Assembly (NCBI GenBank): GCA_964490075.1 | Contig: CAZBBK010000004.1 | Span: 1-64,000, forward strand | Source of the DNA: an uncultured Gemmatimonadota bacterium | GTDB lineage: Bacteria > GCA-2686955 | Direction of reading: 5' to 3' | DNA: 64,000 nucleotides | Shown: positions 1-7,553 of the stretch, piece by piece | Layout of the letters: each line of letters starts with the position of its first letter | Position numbering within the stretch: position 1 is the first letter of the stretch | Program-made: the position numbers and the translations under genes | Notes under the pieces: model-generated | Seen by the model: the letters and a program-made list of their open reading frames with translations, nothing else | Told to the model about the DNA's origin: nothing | Database searches by the model: none

Positions 1-53
1 AAGTGGGTCGCTTCTCACGAGCACAGGTGGGTCAATTCTGGCGAGCGCCTAAG
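1..53. mobile_element. Probable terminus of an IS21-family insertion sequence (transposase outside window)
   Basis: Two imperfect 20-bp direct repeats with 24-bp period (GTGGGTCGCTTCTCACGAGC 3-22; GTGGGTCAATTCTGGCGAGC 27-46) end in GCGCCTAAG. Tandem transposase-binding sites are typical of IS21 ends. The repeats abut a 5'-truncated gene. Confidence 0.65.
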
Positions 54-413
54 CCTATCGCGGCAGCCCACGGGGACGACGTGCCGTTCGTCGTGGACCC
101 CTTCTCCGGAGGCGGTGCCATCCCCCTGGAGGTCCTCCGGCTCGGGTGTGAGGTGTTCGCCAGTGACCTCAATCCCGTCGCTGCCTTCATCCTGAAGGTG
201 ATGGTGGAGGACATGCCACGCAGTGATCCGGACTTCGTGGATCGAGTGGAAGCGGCCGGCAAGCGCGTCCGTGAGATCGCGAAGCAGCGGATCGGCCAGT
301 TCTACCGGGCAGACGAAGACGGCGCGAAGCCTGTCGCCTACCTTTGGTCTCGGACCGTTCGGTGTGAATCGGCCAACTGCGGTGCAGAGATCCCGATCTA
401 CCGGTTGCCCTAG
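54..413 (+). pseudogene. Internal fragment of a DUF1156-family adenine DNA methylase
   Basis: SAM-binding motif VVDPFSGGGAIPLE...SDLNPVA and Zn-ribbon start AYLWSRTVRCESANCGAEIP. No native start, and the frame stops at 411-413. Confidence 0.8.
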
Positions 414-1681
414 CGCTCGAAGCCAAGTCCTACTACATCCGGCGCGCCGGCTCCGACGGCTTCCGCATCCACCACCAGCCCACACTCAAGAAGGTGGTGA
501 GCGATCGCCGAGCCTCCCTCGACGAGGAGACGGAGGTCCTGCCGACCCTGCGCTCGCTGGTGCAAAAGGAGTTCGAACGAGGCGCGAGTGTGCCGCTCCT
601 GCCGTTCCCGGCGGACGGGTCCGCGGTCGCGGACTCGCCCAAGCTCACGGTCCTGGTCACGGACCCCGACGTCGAGTGGACCGGCACCGGCGCCGTGCGG
701 GAGCAGATCGCCGAGTGGACGAAGCAGCGGGGCAAGTCGCCGCGTCTCTATCCGGGCTCGCTGGTGTGGTGCGGCCGGAAACCGGGGCGCGACCTGCGCG
801 AGAAGGTCGAGCTGCTGCTGGCGTGGAGGCGCGTCCAGAAGGAGATCAACGAGGGCGTCCTGGGCACCGAGTTCGATCGGTCCGATCGCGCGGACGTTCA
901 GGCCAAGGTGGTCGAGGCGGAAACCGACGCCAAGGACGAGGTCTGGGCCGGCTATCGCTTCATAATGGTCGCGGACAACGACGAGCCCGACGACCTGCGA
1001 GTCATCGACCTCGGCGCAGGTCATTCGAGCGGATCCGAGACCCTGTGCGGCCGCGTGATCGGGGCGCTCAAGTCCGAGGCCCTGCTGAACGAGTCCGTGG
1101 GCGCCGGCTACATCGACCGCAACTGGCCGCCCGCCCTCAAGGCGTCCGGCGCGTGGTCACTGCTGAGCCTGAGGCAGAGCTTCCTCGACGGGTCGCTGAC
1201 ACGCCTGCTCGATCCGGACAAGGTCCTGCGAACGAAGGTCGTCGAGTTCGTGGATAGCGGCGACTTCGGTCTCGCCTCCGGCAAGCAGCCGGACGGGACG
1301 TACGACAGGTTCTGGTACGAGGAGGCGGTCTCCAGCGACGAGGTAGCGTTCGAGGCGGACGTGTTCCTGCTCAAACGCGACAAGGCGAAGGCCCTCAAGG
1401 CTGGCGCTCCGCCGCCACCGGAACCACCCGAGCCACCGGGACCCGAGCCACCCGCGGGCCCCACCACGAGCACGGTTCGTGTCACCGGGAACATCCCGCC
1501 GGAGATCTGGAACCGGCTGGGTACCAAGCTGCTGCCGAAGCTCAGGAGCGGTGGCGCCGAGCTCGAGGTCGGCGTCGATTTCTCGGCGACGATCCGCTCC
1601 GACATGGCAGCGGGCCTGACGACCGAAATCCGCCAGATCCTCGAGGAGCTGGGAATCGCTGACAAGGTGAAGGTGGAGTAA
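414..1681 (+). pseudogene. C-terminal portion of a DUF499-family AAA+ ATPase (P-loop region missing)
   Basis: The frame is open from ~414 (ALEAKSYYIRRAGSDGFRIHHQPTLKKVVSDRRASL). It has a Pro-rich linker and the C-terminal GNIPPEIWNRLGTKLLPKLRSG typical of DUF499 proteins. There is no Walker A and no proper start. Confidence 0.7.
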
Positions 1682-1694
1682 GAAGTCCCTCGTG

Positions 1695-1940
1695 TGTTTC
1701 AGACCCGGCGATCGCCACAAGCGTGTTGCCATGTGGTGCGACGAGAATCCCGACGGTCGCTGGCGGCCTCTGGCTACGACAGGATCATCAATCGCGACAA
1801 GATGAGCCTCGACTCTTCTGGCCGCGGGACGAGTCCCTGGAGGATTCAGCCGATCTGCCCGATCCGCACATCTTGGCGCAGGAGATCGTGGATGATCTGG
1901 AGTCTGATCTGGATGAGATTCGAGAGGTGCTCGGAGATGC
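1695..1940 (+). pseudogene. hsdM: C-terminal remnant of type I restriction-modification methyltransferase HsdM with two frameshifts
   Basis: The HsdM tail is spread over three frames: CFRPGDRHKRVAMWCDENPDGRWR / YDRIINRDKMSLD / FWPRDESLEDSADLPDPHILAQEIVDDLE. Confidence 0.75.
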
Positions 1941-2024
1941 CAAGGGGTACCCGTGGCCTGACTGTCGTGGCCGGCGAGATCGCCGGCCGTCCGGTCCCTT
2001 TGAGGTCGGCCGTCAGTCCGACTC

Positions 2025-2561
2025 TCACCCCCGGACGATGTAGCCCCGTAGCTTGATGTAGGCACTCGCCAACCCGTCCACGCTGTCGATGTCGAATGCC
2101 CGGTACTCGATGCGGGGATCGAGTGGATTGACCGGCAGCCACGCGTACAAGGAGCCGAAGGTCTTCTCATCGAAGAGCTGGCCCTGGAGGTCGACGTGGC
2201 GGTGGGTATCAGCGACCCCCGCTTGACGGATCTCCCAGCTCACCGCCTCCCCCGGCTCCGCGTGTTCGTAGCGCGCGTCCACCTCGACATAGATCAGAAT
2301 CGTCCCGGCCGGCACGAGGCCCGCAAGATCGATCACCTCCCAATCGCTGCCTGGGTGGCGAACGTCCTGCCTCCAGACCAGAGTTTCGTCGACCGACAGG
2401 TCCATCCCCAATCCCGCAGCCACCGTCAAGGGTGTCGTACTGCGCGGCTCCTCGGTCTCCGCGGCGAGATCCGATCCGATCGCAACAGGCGACAATGCGA
2501 TCCCGAGCGCGCTGATCGCTGCCACGCCCAGACATCCAAGCCTCTTCATTCCTGAACTCAT
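2025..2561 (-). CDS. Hypothetical secreted protein
   Basis: GGAGGAG RBS before ATG 2561 and a signal-peptide-like N-terminus (KRLGCLGVAAISALGIAL). The mature part is beta-rich. Confidence 0.7.
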   Translation of the reverse strand: MSSGMKRLGCLGVAAISALGIALSPVAIGSDLAAETEEPRSTTPLTVAAGLGMDLSVDETLVWRQDVRHPGSDWEVIDLAGLVPAGTILIYVEVDARYEHAEPGEAVSWEIRQAGVADTHRHVDLQGQLFDEKTFGSLYAWLPVNPLDPRIEYRAFDIDSVDGLASAYIKLRGYIVRG

Positions 2562-2926
2562 GTCCAATTCTCCTCCCCCGGTCGGGGCTCATGCGCAGGC
2601 TCGCGAAACGCTCTTCTGCGCTGCCGCCAGCTGCGCGGATCTACCCCCGTATGTGCCGCACCGCCCCCTTTCTTGCCATCCAATCGCGGAACCGAGGTAG
2701 ACAGAGCCGATTCCCGCGTCGCCCGGCCTCGGCGACGAATTCGCTCTGGCCATGGCAAATTCCACCGTGCAAGAGCACATCTCCCGACAAGGGTCGGCCG
2801 CGCGCCGCGGGCCGGAGCAAGGCCAGTCCTCCGTGTGATGAGAGGCGCGCTATCATGCGCAACAGCCAAGTCGTACCCATCAAACGACCCGATCCCACTC
2901 CGCCGGGTGCGGAGAGAGAGGGGGCC

Positions 2927-3586
2927 ATGAGCGATCTCCCAGCAGAGGGTTCGGGCGGCGCTCGGGACACGCTCGAGAGAACCTACCTGCGCGTGGTGCT
3001 CTGGGCGCGGCGCCACTACGGGTGGATCAGCAAGATGCCGGGAACGATCTCCTCCGACGACCTCGTCCACGATGTCTTTCTGGCGATCGCCTCCGGCAGC
3101 AGGAGCTGGCCCGCCGAGTTCCCCCTGGAAGTCGTCGCGAAGCGTGACGTCAAAACCGATGTAATGGCGCTCTATCGGAAGTGGAGGGCCCGCGAGGACC
3201 GAGGGATCCGGTTGGTCTCGATCGATGGGCCGGGCTCGAATCACGGGCCCGCGGCACACGAAGCACCCGGAGGCGACAGCGCGAGGCGCTCCGCCAATGC
3301 CGATCTCGACCCTGACGCTCCGGAGCGCGCACGCCCGGACCCGCTGCTGCGTGCCGCGATCATCGACCTCGTCCGCGGAGACGACGACGCCGAGACGGCG
3401 GTGATCCACATGTTGGATGCAATCGACCAGGGAGCGCCCCCTCCTCGACCGCGAGACCTCGTGGTGGAGCTCGGCTGGGAGCTGGAGCGCGTGCGCAACG
3501 TCGTCAAGCGGATACGCCGCCGACTGGGACCCGCCCGCCTCTTTCTGCGTCCAGGCGACTCCACGGAGGAAGGGATGACACCATGA
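2927..3586 (+). CDS. ECF sigma-factor-like protein
   Basis: Region-2-like DDLVHDVFLAI and region-4-like HTH PRDLVVELGWELERVRNVVKRIRRRL. Purine-rich RBS before ATG 2927 (alternative start 2855). Confidence 0.65.
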   Translation: MSDLPAEGSGGARDTLERTYLRVVLWARRHYGWISKMPGTISSDDLVHDVFLAIASGSRSWPAEFPLEVVAKRDVKTDVMALYRKWRAREDRGIRLVSIDGPGSNHGPAAHEAPGGDSARRSANADLDPDAPERARPDPLLRAAIIDLVRGDDDAETAVIHMLDAIDQGAPPPRPRDLVVELGWELERVRNVVKRIRRRLGPARLFLRPGDSTEEGMTP

Positions 3587-4440
3587 CACAAGGACGCGAC
3601 CTTGCCCGCGAGTGGCTCTTGCGGCTCGTGGAGGAGCTGCAAGAGAAGGACCCCAGCGCTCCACGAGAATGCGCGCCCTCCGAAGGCGGCGTCGAATCGC
3701 TGGAGCAACTGCGGCAGCTCGTCGCGGCCGAAGGCGGGGTGCCTCCGGAGCTCCCATCGTGGGCCAGAAAAGCCCTCGAATCCGAGCTGCGGCGGCGCGG
3801 CCAGGCGCCGCGTGTGTTGCATCTCGTCAGAGTCGGAGAACCGTTCGAAGCAGACGCAGCACCGAATCGGGCAACCCGCGGCAAACTGGCCGCGTCCGCG
3901 TCGAGCGCCGCCTACGAACGTGTGGCGACATTGAGCACCTCGGACGGCTCCGCGACGGTCTGGATCGACCGCTACCGACCAGAGAATCACCTCCTCGCCC
4001 ACGTCGACGCAGATCCGGGATCCGGCCCCTATCTGCTCAGGCTCCACGAACCGGACATCGAGCTTCCCGTCGGACCGCGCGGACGAACACTCTTTCCCGA
4101 TGGAGTAGAGGTCGGTGACAAGACTCGTGTCGAACTGGTGCTGCCGACCGCCGTCCTGGAGCTCGAGCCCGCCAGCGCCGAGTCGGAGCCCGATCGAGAT
4201 CGGTGGATCCTGCGCGGCGCTTCGACGGAGGATCTCCAGGTGGAGATACTGCGCGACGGGGATCGATGGCGTCTGTCTCTGCGAGCACCGCGGTCCGAAG
4301 ACAGCGAGAGCGCGCTCCGCCTGCTGATCGAGTCACCCTCCGGCAAACAGTGGTTGGCCGAGCTGGACGGCGGAATGGCCGAGCTTCGGGATCTGGAGAT
4401 CGAGCCGGGCGCATCCGGTGCGATCTTCTCGATGGAATGA
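3583..4440 (+). CDS. Hypothetical protein, possible soluble anti-sigma factor
   Basis: ATGA overlaps with both neighbours. It has a helical N-terminus, a linker with KLAAS and a beta-rich C-terminal half. Function is inferred from position only. Confidence 0.6.
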   Translation: MTQGRDLAREWLLRLVEELQEKDPSAPRECAPSEGGVESLEQLRQLVAAEGGVPPELPSWARKALESELRRRGQAPRVLHLVRVGEPFEADAAPNRATRGKLAASASSAAYERVATLSTSDGSATVWIDRYRPENHLLAHVDADPGSGPYLLRLHEPDIELPVGPRGRTLFPDGVEVGDKTRVELVLPTAVLELEPASAESEPDRDRWILRGASTEDLQVEILRDGDRWRLSLRAPRSEDSESALRLLIESPSGKQWLAELDGGMAELRDLEIEPGASGAIFSME

Positions 4441-6236
4441 GGGCAAGCACGGACTTCGATCGCTGTCTGGCCGACGTCGGCCGGAAGCTGCGTCACCACA
4501 CGCCGCCGGCCGCTCTGCTCCTGCTGGCCGATGCCCTGGAGCGTGAGACCGAGCTCGCGCGCTCGCCCGTGCGCCAAGGCTATGCCCTGGAACGTCTCTT
4601 GCCCGAGCTCCTGGACGGCCTGGTGACGACGGATTGGGCGCGGCTTCCGGATGAGATCGCGACCACGACCGCCGACATCCTGGGCCGCTACTCCGCCTGC
4701 CAGCCCTTCCCCGCCGAGCGCTCGAAGCTCGACGCCATCGAGGCCAGCATCGAGGAGGGCAGAGTCCGGCGAATGACCGCTCTGGCCGGCGACGGTCCCT
4801 CCGATCGCGACCGACGCGGTCGCCCGGCTCATGGGACGGAGGTGCTGGTTCCGATGGTGGAGCGCCTCCCCGGTCGCGAGCTGGAGCGCGTGGTCGGGAT
4901 CGGGGCCAAGGTGGAGGCGGTGTTCCATTCTTCGGCCTCCACGCTGCTCGTGCCTCAGGCGGATGTCGATGAAGCTCACGCGACACTCGAGCGACTTCGC
5001 GAGCGATATCCTCGTCGCCACCTCGCCCTGATCGGAGTAGCTAGGGTCGAGTCGGCGTGGACCGACTCGCGGGTCACTCGCCGTGCCCCATTGCCTGGGC
5101 GCTGGGTGGTGTGGACGGTCTGTGCCCTCATCGCGGCTTTGTTGGCCGTGACCGCCGGGACCAGGCGCGCCCGGGGCGGCAGGGCCGTAGCCCAAGCCGC
5201 GCTGGAGGAGAATCGCATCGTGGCCCGCGCCGCCGACGGTTCGCCGACCTGGGCATGGCCTCTCCCCTTTCCCATCGATCCAACGATTCGAGGCCGCCTC
5301 GAAAGCGACCTCCTGCAAGTCGAGGATCTCGATGGGGACGAAGGGAAGGAGGTAGCTGCGTTGCTCCATGAGGCCGGCGACGCGGAAGGGATGTCGGCTG
5401 AGCTCGTAATCCTCGACGACGACGGAAGCCTCATCTCTCGCCGCACTCTCGGCCACGCTCTCGGAATCGGACGCTGGAAGAACGTGGCGGAGCGGAAGTA
5501 CCTGTCGCGCTTTCTGCGACTGGTCGAGCGAGCCGTGGAGCCTCCCCTCCTGCTGGCGGTAGTCACCCGGAACATCTACTACCCCTGCCAGCTCGTTCTG
5601 TCCGATGGATCCGGCGGAATCCAAGGCGTCTACTGGCATCCGGGCGTGCTGTACGTGGTGGAGACGGTCGACATCGACGGTGACGGCAACGAGGAGATTC
5701 TCGTCGCCGGAACCAACAATTCTGTCGCTCGCGCCGCCTGGGCCGTGCTCGATCCGGACGATCTGTGGGGTCAGGCACCGCCCTTCGATGCCTTCGAGGG
5801 AGTAGATGCCGCGCGGCACCGAGCCTACATCACATTTCCATCGACCCCGTGGGTGCAGGACGAGCTGCGCAACGCCATCGAAACGGTGCAGCTCAGTGGA
5901 CCTACCGGGTACCGAGCCGTTGTTCTCGAGGGCAAGCACCCGACCTTCCCATCCCTGAGGCCCACGGTGATCTACCACTTCAATCGTGTGCACGGCACAC
6001 TCGCATGGACCGCGCGTCAGCCTGGCGGAGACCTGCAGATCGTCGTGGCGCCTTCCGTTCCGGCGAATCGCCGTTACCAGGCCGCCGCGGACTGGCTGCG
6101 CCGGGAGGTATCGCGACCCTGCGCGTGGAACGGCCGGAAGTGGATTCCGCTCGGAATCGGCGCAATCCCGCCAGAGTTCGGGCCGGAGGACTGCGACGCC
6201 GATGCGCGCCCACTCCTCGCGGCTCCCGGCCTCTGA
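4437..6236 (+). CDS. Single-pass membrane protein with Lon_C-like cytoplasmic segment and extracellular FG-GAP/VCBS-like repeats
   Basis: ATG 4437 overlaps the upstream stop. TM helix WVVWTVCALIAALLAV. Ca-binding motifs DLDGDEGKE and DIDGDGNEEILVAG. VVGIGAKVEAVFHSSASTLLVP resembles the Lon catalytic-Lys region. Confidence 0.65.
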   Translation: MRASTDFDRCLADVGRKLRHHTPPAALLLLADALERETELARSPVRQGYALERLLPELLDGLVTTDWARLPDEIATTTADILGRYSACQPFPAERSKLDAIEASIEEGRVRRMTALAGDGPSDRDRRGRPAHGTEVLVPMVERLPGRELERVVGIGAKVEAVFHSSASTLLVPQADVDEAHATLERLRERYPRRHLALIGVARVESAWTDSRVTRRAPLPGRWVVWTVCALIAALLAVTAGTRRARGGRAVAQAALEENRIVARAADGSPTWAWPLPFPIDPTIRGRLESDLLQVEDLDGDEGKEVAALLHEAGDAEGMSAELVILDDDGSLISRRTLGHALGIGRWKNVAERKYLSRFLRLVERAVEPPLLLAVVTRNIYYPCQLVLSDGSGGIQGVYWHPGVLYVVETVDIDGDGNEEILVAGTNNSVARAAWAVLDPDDLWGQAPPFDAFEGVDAARHRAYITFPSTPWVQDELRNAIETVQLSGPTGYRAVVLEGKHPTFPSLRPTVIYHFNRVHGTLAWTARQPGGDLQIVVAPSVPANRRYQAAADWLRREVSRPCAWNGRKWIPLGIGAIPPEFGPEDCDADARPLLAAPGL

Positions 6237-6272
6237 GTCACGTCAGACGCCAACACCAGTCCCCCCGCTCCC

Positions 6273-7553
6273 TCAACCCACCCCAACCGCCCCCCGATGC
6301 GCCTCCAGAATCCGGTCGATCTCCGCGTCGCCATGCGCCGCCGACAGGAACCACGCTTCGTACCCCGAAGGCGGCAGGTAGATCCCGGCGCGCAGCATCG
6401 CCGCGTGGTAGCGCGCGAAACGCTCGTGATCGGCGTCCGCCGCCGACTCCAGGTCGGTCACCGCGGAATCGCCGAAGAAGAGCGTCAGCATCGATCCGAC
6501 CCGCTGCACCCTCGCTACGTCCCCCGCCCCCTCGGCCAGCCCCTGCTCCAGCCGCTCCCCGATCCGCTCCAGGTGCTCGTAGACCTCGCCGTCCAGGCGC
6601 TCGAGCGTCGCCGCTCCGGCCGCCATCGCCAGCGGATTCCCCGCCAAGGTCCCGGCCTGATACACCGGCCCGAGAGGCGCCACCCGATCCATCAGCTCCG
6701 CCGCCCCCCCATACGCCCCGACCGGCAGCCCGCCGCCGATCACTTTCCCCATCGTCGTCAGATCCGGCTCCACCCCGAAGCGTTCCTGCGCCCCGCCGGC
6801 CGCCACCCGAAACCCCGTCATCACCTCGTCGAAGACCAAGAGCGCCCCCGCCGCCCGTGTCGCCCCGCGCAGCCGCTCCAGGTAGCCCGGCGCCGGCGGC
6901 ACCACGCCCATGTTTCCCGCCACCGGCTCCAAGATGACGCACGCCACCTCGTGGTCACGCAGCGCCTGGTCCACCGCCGCCGCGTCGTTGAAGGGCACCA
7001 CCAGCGTCTGGGCCGCCAATGCCGCCGGCACCCCCGGCGAGTCGGGCATCCCCAGCGTCAGCGCCCCCGACCCCGCCGCCACCAGAAACGAGTCGCCGTG
7101 CCCGTGGTAATGCCCCGCCATCTTCACGATCTTCGACCGCCCGGTCACCGCCCGCGCCAGCCGGATCGCGCTCATCGTCGCCTCGGTGCCGCTGCATACG
7201 AAACGCACCTTCTCCACCGACGGCACCCGTGCCACCACCAGCCGCGCCAGCTCCAGCTCCTGCGCGCAGGGCGCCCCGAAACTCATCCCGCGCCCCGCCG
7301 TCCGCTGCACCGCCTCCACCACCTCGCGCCGCGCATGCCCCAGGATCAACGGTCCCCACGACCCCACCAGGTCGACATACTCGTTCCCGTCCACGTCCCA
7401 AATCCGCGCCCCCTCGCCGCGCGCCACGAAGGGAGGCGTCCCCCCCACCGCTCGAAAGGCCCGCACCGGGCTGTTGACTCCGCCGACCATGCACCCCCGT
7501 GCCTGCTCGAGGAGACGCTCCGACTGCTGCAGTGAAAAACGCTCGGAATGCAT
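6273..7553 (-). CDS. hemL: Glutamate-1-semialdehyde 2,1-aminomutase
   Basis: GGVNSPVRAF, SWGPLILGHA, SGTEATMSAIRLAR, FDEVMTGFR and the PLP-lysine motif MGKVIGGGLPVGAYGG. Start trimmed to ATG 7553. Confidence 0.97.
   Translation of the reverse strand: MHSERFSLQQSERLLEQARGCMVGGVNSPVRAFRAVGGTPPFVARGEGARIWDVDGNEYVDLVGSWGPLILGHARREVVEAVQRTAGRGMSFGAPCAQELELARLVVARVPSVEKVRFVCSGTEATMSAIRLARAVTGRSKIVKMAGHYHGHGDSFLVAAGSGALTLGMPDSPGVPAALAAQTLVVPFNDAAAVDQALRDHEVACVILEPVAGNMGVVPPAPGYLERLRGATRAAGALLVFDEVMTGFRVAAGGAQERFGVEPDLTTMGKVIGGGLPVGAYGGAAELMDRVAPLGPVYQAGTLAGNPLAMAAGAATLERLDGEVYEHLERIGERLEQGLAEGAGDVARVQRVGSMLTLFFGDSAVTDLESAADADHERFARYHAAMLRAGIYLPPSGYEAWFLSAAHGDAEIDRILEAHRGAVGVG

Follow-up and report, generated by a model that had tools for sequence, protein, structure and literature searches.

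The window analysed here is the first 64 kb (64,000 nucleotides) of contig C4 from the genome of an uncultured Gemmatimonadota bacterium, and it begins at the contig end. Near this end, three consecutive open reading frames (ORF1, ORF2 and ORF3) form a cassette that a preliminary description had read as a sigma factor of the extracytoplasmic function (ECF) type, its anti-sigma factor and a Lon-like membrane sensor. We find that ORF3 belongs to a family of one-pass transmembrane (TM) proteins that combine a Lon-like Ser-Lys domain with an FG-GAP-type beta-propeller, and that the half of this domain that carries the catalytic Ser is missing from the copy in the window. The genome (5.7 Mb in 136 contigs, 95.3% complete) has few relatives, deposited as uncultured Gemmatimonadota metagenome-assembled genomes (MAGs), and the collection searched holds only 5 genomes of its GTDB phylum. 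Near-identical DNA is present in four runs of a single marine-metagenome study. The three genes are:

2927-3586, forward strand: ORF1, 219 aa, probably a very divergent ECF-like sigma factor
3583-4440, forward strand: ORF2, 285 aa, soluble protein in the anti-sigma position
4437-6236, forward strand: ORF3, 599 aa, member of the Lon-like/TM/FG-GAP-propeller family in which the catalytic-Ser half of the protease domain is deleted

As had been described, the genes are joined by ATGA start/stop overlaps at 3583-3586 (ORF1/ORF2) and 4437-4440 (ORF2/ORF3). The GC content at codon positions 1/2/3 is of the coding type for all three (0.72/0.52/0.79 for ORF1, 0.76/0.51/0.73 for ORF2 and 0.74/0.51/0.78 for ORF3), with a GC3 below that of the neighbouring guaB-like gene (0.88). 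The ATG at 2927 is favoured as the start of ORF1, because the 5' extension of its longest frame (2591-2926; 0.62/0.69/0.69) lacks this periodicity. Open frames as such are weak evidence in this region, because the DNA has 67% G+C and the antisense strand of ORF3 also contains a 654-aa open frame (4029-5993, reverse strand), whose periodicity of 0.71/0.55/0.74 is not coding-like. Taken together, we consider it probable that the three genes constitute one translationally coupled operon, a strongly diverged copy of a conserved, unnamed module that is crippled here.

The Lon-like/TM/propeller family and the deletion in ORF3

Homologues of ORF3 are found in the sister genus (genome G003, 33% identity) and, in two copies, in G004, which represents another family of the same class. 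They are 675-766 aa long and have G-x-S and Lys motifs in their cytoplasmic part. A five-sequence profile (A1), run against 1.84 billion representative sequences, matched 3930 representatives at E<=1e-3 and 2427 at E<=1e-10, with 552 clusters at E<=1e-30; most matches are 750-790 aa long. Among solved structures, the profile matched LonB of A. fulgidus (1z0e, E 3.8e-7) and LonC (4fwd, 1.2e-5), as well as mitochondrial and bacterial LonA structures at 1e-4 to 1e-3. In the profile alignment, the G-D-S Ser motif and the Lys of the family fall on the catalytic dyad of LonB. Pfam detected FG-GAP_3 in 34, FG-GAP in 18, Beta-prop_CGLA in 17 and, at E<=0.01, Lon_C in 11 of 50 members, while for four close homologues Lon_C was below the gathering score or absent. 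Members of the family have an N-terminal cytoplasmic region, followed by a Lon-like Ser-Lys domain, a single TM helix and, outside the cytoplasm, a propeller; the Ser-Lys dyad is kept near-universally. The Atlas neighbours of a G004 member were all clusters named 'hypothetical protein'; a word-based homologue search with the G003 Lon-like protein returned 2 proteins, and scans of metagenome contigs yielded no relative.

ORF3 itself is recognised by a hidden Markov model (HMM) of 50 family members with an E value of 1.7e-108; searched singly, it has no match above threshold in Pfam, NCBIfam, PADLOC or the PDB. It comprises the following segments:

4437-4844, forward strand: N-terminal cytoplasmic helical domain (aa 1-136), common to the G003 and P0005 homologues; the profile match spans 4437-4871
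4845-4892, forward strand: junction at which ORF3, unlike all homologues, is without the Ser-bearing half of the Lon-like domain (alignment and profile match)
4893-5081, forward strand: C-terminal half of the Lon-like domain that ORF3 still has (aa 153-215), including Lys158, which is invariant in the family
5091-5165, forward strand: single TM helix (about aa 219-243; Kyte-Doolittle)
5166-6233, forward strand: extracytoplasmic FG-GAP-type beta-propeller with a D-x-D-G-D-G-type motif at aa 408-425 (5658-5711)

The alignment covers profile positions 1-136 and 219-666. Absent are the 82 positions from 137 to 218, which comprise the Ser motif (G-x-S) and the subsequent T-G-x-x-D-x-x-G block. In an alignment of 50 sequences, the Ser is present in 49 of 49 homologues and the Lys in 50 of 50 sequences. 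A wider count of 152 sequences (the 151 best hits and ORF3) found the Ser in 145 and the Lys in 146. The seven sequences without the Ser are ORF3, one 250-aa fragment, four proteins that are without the whole domain and match in the propeller alone, and one protein with a Ser->Pro and a Lys->Asn exchange, so that the Ser motif is found in 145 of the 146 hits containing the domain. Among the 151 best hits, the doubly exchanged protein, P0119 (760 aa, from the representative library), is the sole other one with a disabled dyad; its domain is otherwise complete.

Contigs assembled separately from the four runs bridge 4845-4892 with 0 differences and no alternative joint (X1, 3825-6170; X2, 4427-5044; X3, 4769-5291; X4, 4833-4992); the four runs belong to one study, and one of them may be the source of the window DNA. 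No second copy of an ORF3-type gene was found in the 95.3% complete genome.

The retained Lon half is the part of ORF3 with the highest identity to the G003 protein (40%, 25/63), compared with 29% for the N-terminal domain (32/111 aligned residues) and 33% for the outside domain, and it keeps Lys158, Ser165 and Pro173. Kyte-Doolittle windows of 19 residues reach 1.6 or more only at starts aa 219-225, with a maximum of 2.15, and ORF3 alone gives a sub-threshold FG-GAP_3 match at aa 412-425 (E 0.015), which agrees with the one TM helix and subsequent FG-GAP motifs of the preliminary description. The segment likened there to the C-terminus of Lon corresponds to the Lys-bearing half (aa 153-215); the absence of the Ser-bearing half had been overlooked. 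Judged from its sequence, ORF3 cannot be a Ser-Lys protease and cannot act as the protease that had been proposed, because the segment with the catalytic Ser is lost.

The family also duplicates and decays elsewhere, as indicated by two tandem Lon-like genes in G418 (L084, 4950-9519) and by Lon-like genes that are split by in-frame stops or into two ORFs in G376 (L037), G379 (L044) and at one G532 locus (L093). Two proteins of 433 and 440 aa from Acidobacteriota MAGs (L014, 5713-7014; L015, 5281-6603) share the ORF3-type extracytoplasmic domain (26-28% identity, E 5e-13 and 8e-13) and one TM helix, whereas their cytoplasmic part is a small N-terminal DNA-binding helix-turn-helix (HTH) and not a Lon-like domain. 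As the same outside domain is fused to an HTH and a TM helix in these proteins, the propeller seems to be a portable sensor module that is combined with varied cytoplasmic outputs.

Gene neighbourhoods of the Lon-like gene

The neighbourhoods of 29 loci with a Lon-like gene were surveyed in 24 genomes, drawn from a 401-genome sample, the phylum of G173 and the phylum of G358; L087 and L095, which have no complete ORF, were left out. In the 401-genome sample, 12 genomes had a Lon-like match at E<=1e-20. In the phylum of G358, 16 of 201 genomes matched at E<=1e-40, with 14 of 42 in one family. The following genes were found next to the Lon-like gene:

zf-HC2 partner family: 16 of 29 loci (G004 twice, G326:C170, G379, G070 and 11 f260/f279 loci)
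ORF2-type partner: 2 of 29 loci (window and G003)
sigma factor: 7 of 29 loci (window, G004 twice, G358, G326:C170, G379 and G070)
360-aa protein: 14 of 29 loci, all of the f260/f279 lineage
no neighbour type detected: 7 of 29 loci (five abut a contig end, one has a broken gene and one is without upstream flank)

Class I anti-sigma factors are characterised by the zf-HC2 domain. At the two G004 loci, the place of ORF2 is taken by a gene for a soluble zf-HC2 protein, of 286 and 288 aa respectively (Pfam 25.2 and 19.3 bits, cut-off 22.2). The partners from G004, G070, G379, G326 and the f260 lineage carry the H-x3-C-x2-C motif. HMMs built from the partners of one lineage recognise those of another, at 1.2e-6 to 3.8e-9 one way and at 2e-8 to 4e-3 the other way. 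The genes are arranged in the order sigma, zf-HC2, Lon-like at both G004 loci and in G326:C170, and in the order Lon-like, sigma, zf-HC2 in G070 and G379; in all four genomes the ECF sigma overlaps or directly abuts the zf-HC2/Lon-like pair. The difference in gene order between G004/G326 and G070/G379 is better explained by a functional link than by inherited synteny. In G358, a sigma factor and a membrane zf-HC2 anti-sigma factor lie upstream of the Lon-like gene.

The f260 lineage has the Lon-like/TM/propeller gene first, followed by a conserved protein of ~360 aa and then by a zf-HC2 partner of ~215-222 aa (L083, 5261-9395; likewise L081, L082, L084, L085, L088-L091, L093 and L096, in the phylum of G358). 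The 360-aa protein was considered as a sigma factor and rejected (hhalign E 0.12; no Pfam and no PDB match); it may be an output regulator that replaces the sigma factor. Genes for ECF sigma factors and zf-HC2 anti-sigma factors lie beside the Lon-like gene repeatedly, in several unrelated lineages.

The soluble partners have in common a near-invariant L-A-A linker, followed ~10 residues on by an [R/x]-F-x-S-x-D-G block, between the zinc-finger and the C-terminal domains. This region is a candidate cleavage or recognition site.

ORF1 and ORF2

The following features were assigned to ORF1 and ORF2:

2954-3211, forward strand: sigma-2-like helical domain of ORF1 (about aa 10-95), from profile and fold comparison
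3341-3526, forward strand: sigma-4-like HTH of ORF1 (about aa 139-200), with a disordered linker between it and the sigma-2-like domain
N-terminal ~95 aa of ORF2: helical, without the H-x3-C-x2-C motif
3886-3951, forward strand: L-A-A linker (aa 102-104) and S-x-D-G block (aa 118-123) of ORF2, from a joint alignment with the partners
3907-4428, forward strand: C-terminal domain of ORF2 (about aa 109-282), weakly related to the zf-HC2 partner family

On its own, ORF1 found no match in Pfam, NCBIfam, PADLOC or a single-sequence PDB search, a word-based homologue search returned only ORF1 itself, and a BLASTP comparison with the G004 sigma factor was not significant overall. A paralogue is encoded on contig C68 of the same genome (33% identity, E 2.2e-6) and belongs to a lineage-specific family that is present in G001-G003. 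By profile evidence, this sigma family is the nearest kin of ORF1. Its profile retrieved 21 proteins, of which five carry PF04542 and three bear a JGI name of the sigma-70 or sigma-24 family; in 4 of 7 close members, Sigma70_r2 was matched below the Pfam threshold (best E 0.0015). A leave-one-out family HMM scored ORF1 with 42.7 bits (E 5.6e-12), compared with 5.9 bits for the best of 2000 shuffles, and ORF1 retains the invariant residues of its family. An hhalign comparison of the ORF1 family with five bona fide ECF sigmas from Lon-like loci gave a probability of 75% (E 2.5e-5) over 134 columns that span both the sigma-2 and the sigma-4 region. When the family profile was compared with the PDB, 7 of 8 matches were sigma factors, including 3mzy (9.2e-4, aligned over positions 46-203), SigH of M. 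tuberculosis (0.008), CnrH (0.03) and RpoE (0.045).

A model of ORF1 calculated by AlphaFold2 (AF2) from a 27-row alignment had a mean predicted local distance difference test score (pLDDT) of 64.7, with 74-91 over aa 10-95 and 54-78 over aa 139-200; an earlier model from a 4-row alignment was unusable (pLDDT 45.6). Foldseek found no match to the model at E<=1e-3 (E >= 0.03), and nearly all of the 48 matches listed were sigma factors. In a VIA wide search with aa 1-97, the best rows were sigma-2 domains with a Z score of 6.6, which lies under the level decisive for helical bundles, and a root-mean-square deviation of 3.1-3.8 A over 76-94 residues. The sigma region-2 and region-4 features read from the sequence in the preliminary description are thus invisible to Pfam, NCBIfam and the single-sequence PDB search and are backed by profile and fold comparison, and ORF1 is probably a very divergent ECF-like sigma factor.

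Genes of the ORF1-like sigma family (C68, L003 1357-2603; L049, L050, L052 and L056) always precede a gene for a tetratricopeptide repeat (TPR)-like protein of 176-197 aa, with starts that often overlap. In C68, G002 and G003 this pair adjoins a large beta-helix repeat protein. The two genes may represent a lineage-specific sigma/anti-sigma pair.

ORF2 had no match above threshold in Pfam, NCBIfam or PADLOC, and a BLASTP comparison with the G004 anti-sigma factor was not significant overall. In the ESM Atlas it found only unnamed clusters, with a best score of 0.89 that is under the lead threshold. The sole clear homologue is a G003 protein with 40% identity over aa 98-283, which is truncated by a contig end; its gene immediately precedes the Lon-like gene of G003. 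ORF2 contains one Cys only (aa 30), no His occurs in front of aa 79, and H-x3-C-x2-C is hence absent. An hhalign comparison of ORF2 and its G003 homologue with four partners from G004, G070 and G379 gave an E value of 5.5e-4 and a probability of 30% over 153 collinear columns; with 15 partners the E value was 0.024 and with the two G004 partners alone 0.2. Like ORF1, ORF2 has no TM helix by Kyte-Doolittle analysis. A complex prediction of ORF1 with aa 1-100 of ORF2 scored 0.00 in two runs without controls, which speaks neither for nor against binding. On balance, we lean towards ORF2 being a distantly related member of the partner family whose zinc finger is lost. The role of anti-sigma factor assigned to it in the preliminary description is not supported for this locus, as the zinc-finger motif is missing and the relation to the partner family is weak.

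Interpretation, related systems and surroundings of the cassette

In intact members of the family, the propeller may sense a cue in the envelope or outside the cell, and this sensing would activate the cytoplasmic Lon-like domain. The activated domain would then cleave the soluble zf-HC2 partner, possibly at the L-A-A linker, and cleavage of the partner would release the sigma factor. We tentatively suggest that the family represents a new class of one-pass transmembrane signalling proteases, in which a propeller-controlled Lon-type Ser-Lys domain cleaves a zf-HC2 anti-sigma factor and thereby frees an ECF sigma or, in one lineage, the 360-aa protein as a regulator, and that the window contains a natural protease-dead derivative. 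Such a route would differ from site-1/site-2 proteolysis, partner switching and phosphorylation as ways of ECF activation. A membrane-bound Lon-like sensor acting on a sigma/anti-sigma pair, as had been envisaged for the window, is therefore plausible for the family, given its Lon domain and recurrent neighbours, but not for this locus, where the Ser segment and the zinc finger are absent. Signalling by ORF3-catalysed proteolysis is impossible here, because ~82 residues including the nucleophilic Ser are gone. Most likely, the locus is a decaying or functionally neutralised remnant in a variable region beside defence-gene debris.

Several observations weigh against this interpretation. The protease activity of the family, its substrate and its activation are putative. 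HMMs of the partners miss ORF2 at E<0.01, and the hhalign probability is 30% at best. ORF1 has no Pfam or NCBIfam match, its fold matches are modest and its pLDDT of 64.7 is middling. The relatives of G358 do not share its sigma/anti-sigma pair upstream of the Lon-like gene, and the adjacency in G358 may be fortuitous. Against a mere remnant, all three frames are open, the coding GC periodicity persists and the ATGA coupling is kept; moreover, the Lon half keeps the invariant Lys and 40% identity to G003, and ORF1 keeps the family-invariant residues.

These same signs of constraint would fit a functional pseudo-protease, in which ORF3 serves as a scaffold that binds ORF2 through its N-terminal domain and the Lys half and regulates ORF1 by signal-dependent sequestration or release and not by cleavage. 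The translationally coupled frames, the conservation of the retained Lon half with its Lys158, Ser165 and Pro173, and the existence of P0119 as a second natural dead member agree with such a role. We nevertheless regard it as rather unlikely, since the remaining half is unlikely to be folded once ~82 residues have gone from the centre of a compact alpha/beta domain, and dead members are rare, with 2 among the 147 sequences in which at least part of the domain is kept. It is improbable that the family does not regulate sigma factors at all and instead consists of envelope or quality-control proteases, or of processing enzymes for secreted substrates, with incidental sigma and zf-HC2 neighbours. 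A sigma factor is indeed adjacent at only 7 of 29 loci, the middle gene of the f260 lineage encodes a 360-aa protein that is not sigma-like, and the sigma gene upstream in G358 lacks conservation among its relatives. However, the zf-HC2 partner is adjacent at 16 of 29 loci in at least five GTDB families and two gene orders, its HMMs are cross-detectable, the ECF sigmas of G004, G326, G070 and G379 overlap or abut the pair, and zf-HC2 is a domain by which class I anti-sigma factors are generally recognised.

The preliminary description had proposed that an extracellular signal makes ORF3, as an active Lon-like protease, cleave ORF2 and so free ORF1, in a CRISPR-independent analogue of the CalpL-CalpT-CalpS system in anti-phage or contact sensing. 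Gene order and overlaps would fit, intact modules occur in the same order in G004, and the cassette adjoins fragments of Hma defence genes. With ORF3 lacking the Ser-bearing half, no other copy in the genome and no zinc-finger motif in ORF2, this is highly improbable. The defence genes upstream are present only as fragments:

3-413, forward strand: fragment of a DUF1156/HmaB-type defence methyltransferase (NCBIfam NF042963, E 2.7e-17; PADLOC HmaB, E 7.1e-18), which covers profile positions 184-287 of 960 and runs off the contig start
494-1681, forward strand: C-terminal fragment of an HmaC-type AAA+ ATPase (PADLOC HmaC, E 5.5e-14), which covers profile positions 514-815 of 941; the N-terminal half is absent

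The cassette does follow directly after this debris, as had been noted; the fragments are context and lie outside the cassette. Beyond them, nothing was found in favour of an anti-phage role: ten neighbour proteins from other loci had no PADLOC match better than E 7e-5, and the downstream genes, which we take from their translations alone to be hemL-like, guaB-like and an S21-like ORF, look like housekeeping genes.

ECF sigma factors belong to the most abundant signal-transduction devices of bacteria, and to our knowledge few ways of freeing them from their anti-sigma factors are known. RseA and RsiW, class I (zf-HC2/ZAS) anti-sigma factors of ECF sigmas, are cut by site-1 and site-2 proteases; most known class I anti-sigma factors span the membrane, and the enzymes that cut them are periplasmic or intramembrane proteases. 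The family would share with them a zf-HC2 anti-sigma factor that holds an ECF sigma and is removed by signal-dependent proteolysis, but its partner is soluble and the candidate protease domain is cytoplasmic and located on the sensor itself. Compared with the Lon proteolytic domain (MEROPS S16; LonB 1z0e, LonC 4fwd), to which it aligns including G-D-S and the catalytic Lys, the family has no AAA+ module, its domain is joined to a TM helix and an FG-GAP propeller, and ORF3 retains the Lys half only.

The closest parallel in logic is the CalpL-CalpT-CalpS system. CalpL consists of an N-terminal domain, a Lon domain whose dyad is S152/K193 or S154/K195, and a SAVED domain; its substrate is CalpT, which has a MazF-like + DUF2080 architecture (bioRxiv 10.1101/2024.05.08.593097). 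The likeness is one of logic only and lies in a Lon-type Ser-Lys protease fused to a sensor, a soluble substrate that resembles an anti-sigma factor and an ECF-like sigma. CalpL carries SAVED, whereas the family has an extracytoplasmic propeller behind a TM helix and no cyclic-nucleotide sensing; the partner is of the zf-HC2 type, in contrast to the MazF-like and DUF2080 parts described for CalpT; and in ORF3 of the window the Ser of the dyad is missing. Pfam found no SAVED domain and no MazF/DUF2080-type partner in ORF2, ORF3 or 50 family members, and the 60 PDB sequences to which the family profile matched do not include CalpL.

No account of a Lon-like/TM/propeller protein with a sigma/anti-sigma pair was found in the literature searched, supplements aside. 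A term search in passages of the ECF re-classification paper (PMC7826278), whose supplements likely hold the genomic-context tables, gave no match to FG-GAP, S16, a propeller or a serine protease. If the proposal is true, a membrane sensor with its own cytoplasmic Lon-type protease and a dedicated soluble zf-HC2 partner adds a mechanistic class, parallel to the CRISPR-linked CalpL yet wired to the cell envelope. The predictions for the family are clear and testable: cleavage of the partner should depend on the Ser-Lys dyad and should occur at the conserved linker. We rate the module as a putative form of regulated anti-sigma proteolysis and of Lon-type signalling proteases, both of which are known, and the window copy as a degenerate member, because the Ser segment of ORF3 and the zinc-finger motif of ORF2 are absent and ORF1 is sigma-like by profile and fold only. 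This copy matters mainly as a natural dead variant and as a pointer to the family, which merits study.

Around the cassette, a promoter and terminator scan of 1600-6600 gave nothing exceeding shuffles, and an Rfam scan of the window found 0 families. A 180-aa ORF (2025-2567, reverse strand) with a signal-peptide-like N-terminus is divergent from ORF1, with a spacer of 359 bp. It has no family match, is not conserved with the cassette, and its one weak match, in G002, contains a stop. A repeat scan gave only short matches that are probably due to chance. These include a 22-nt direct repeat (19/22 identical) at 3472-3493, in the sigma-4 coding part of ORF1, and 4871-4892, at the exact deletion junction of ORF3; it probably arose by chance as well, because the DNA has 67% G+C and 39 such repeat families occur in 7 kb.

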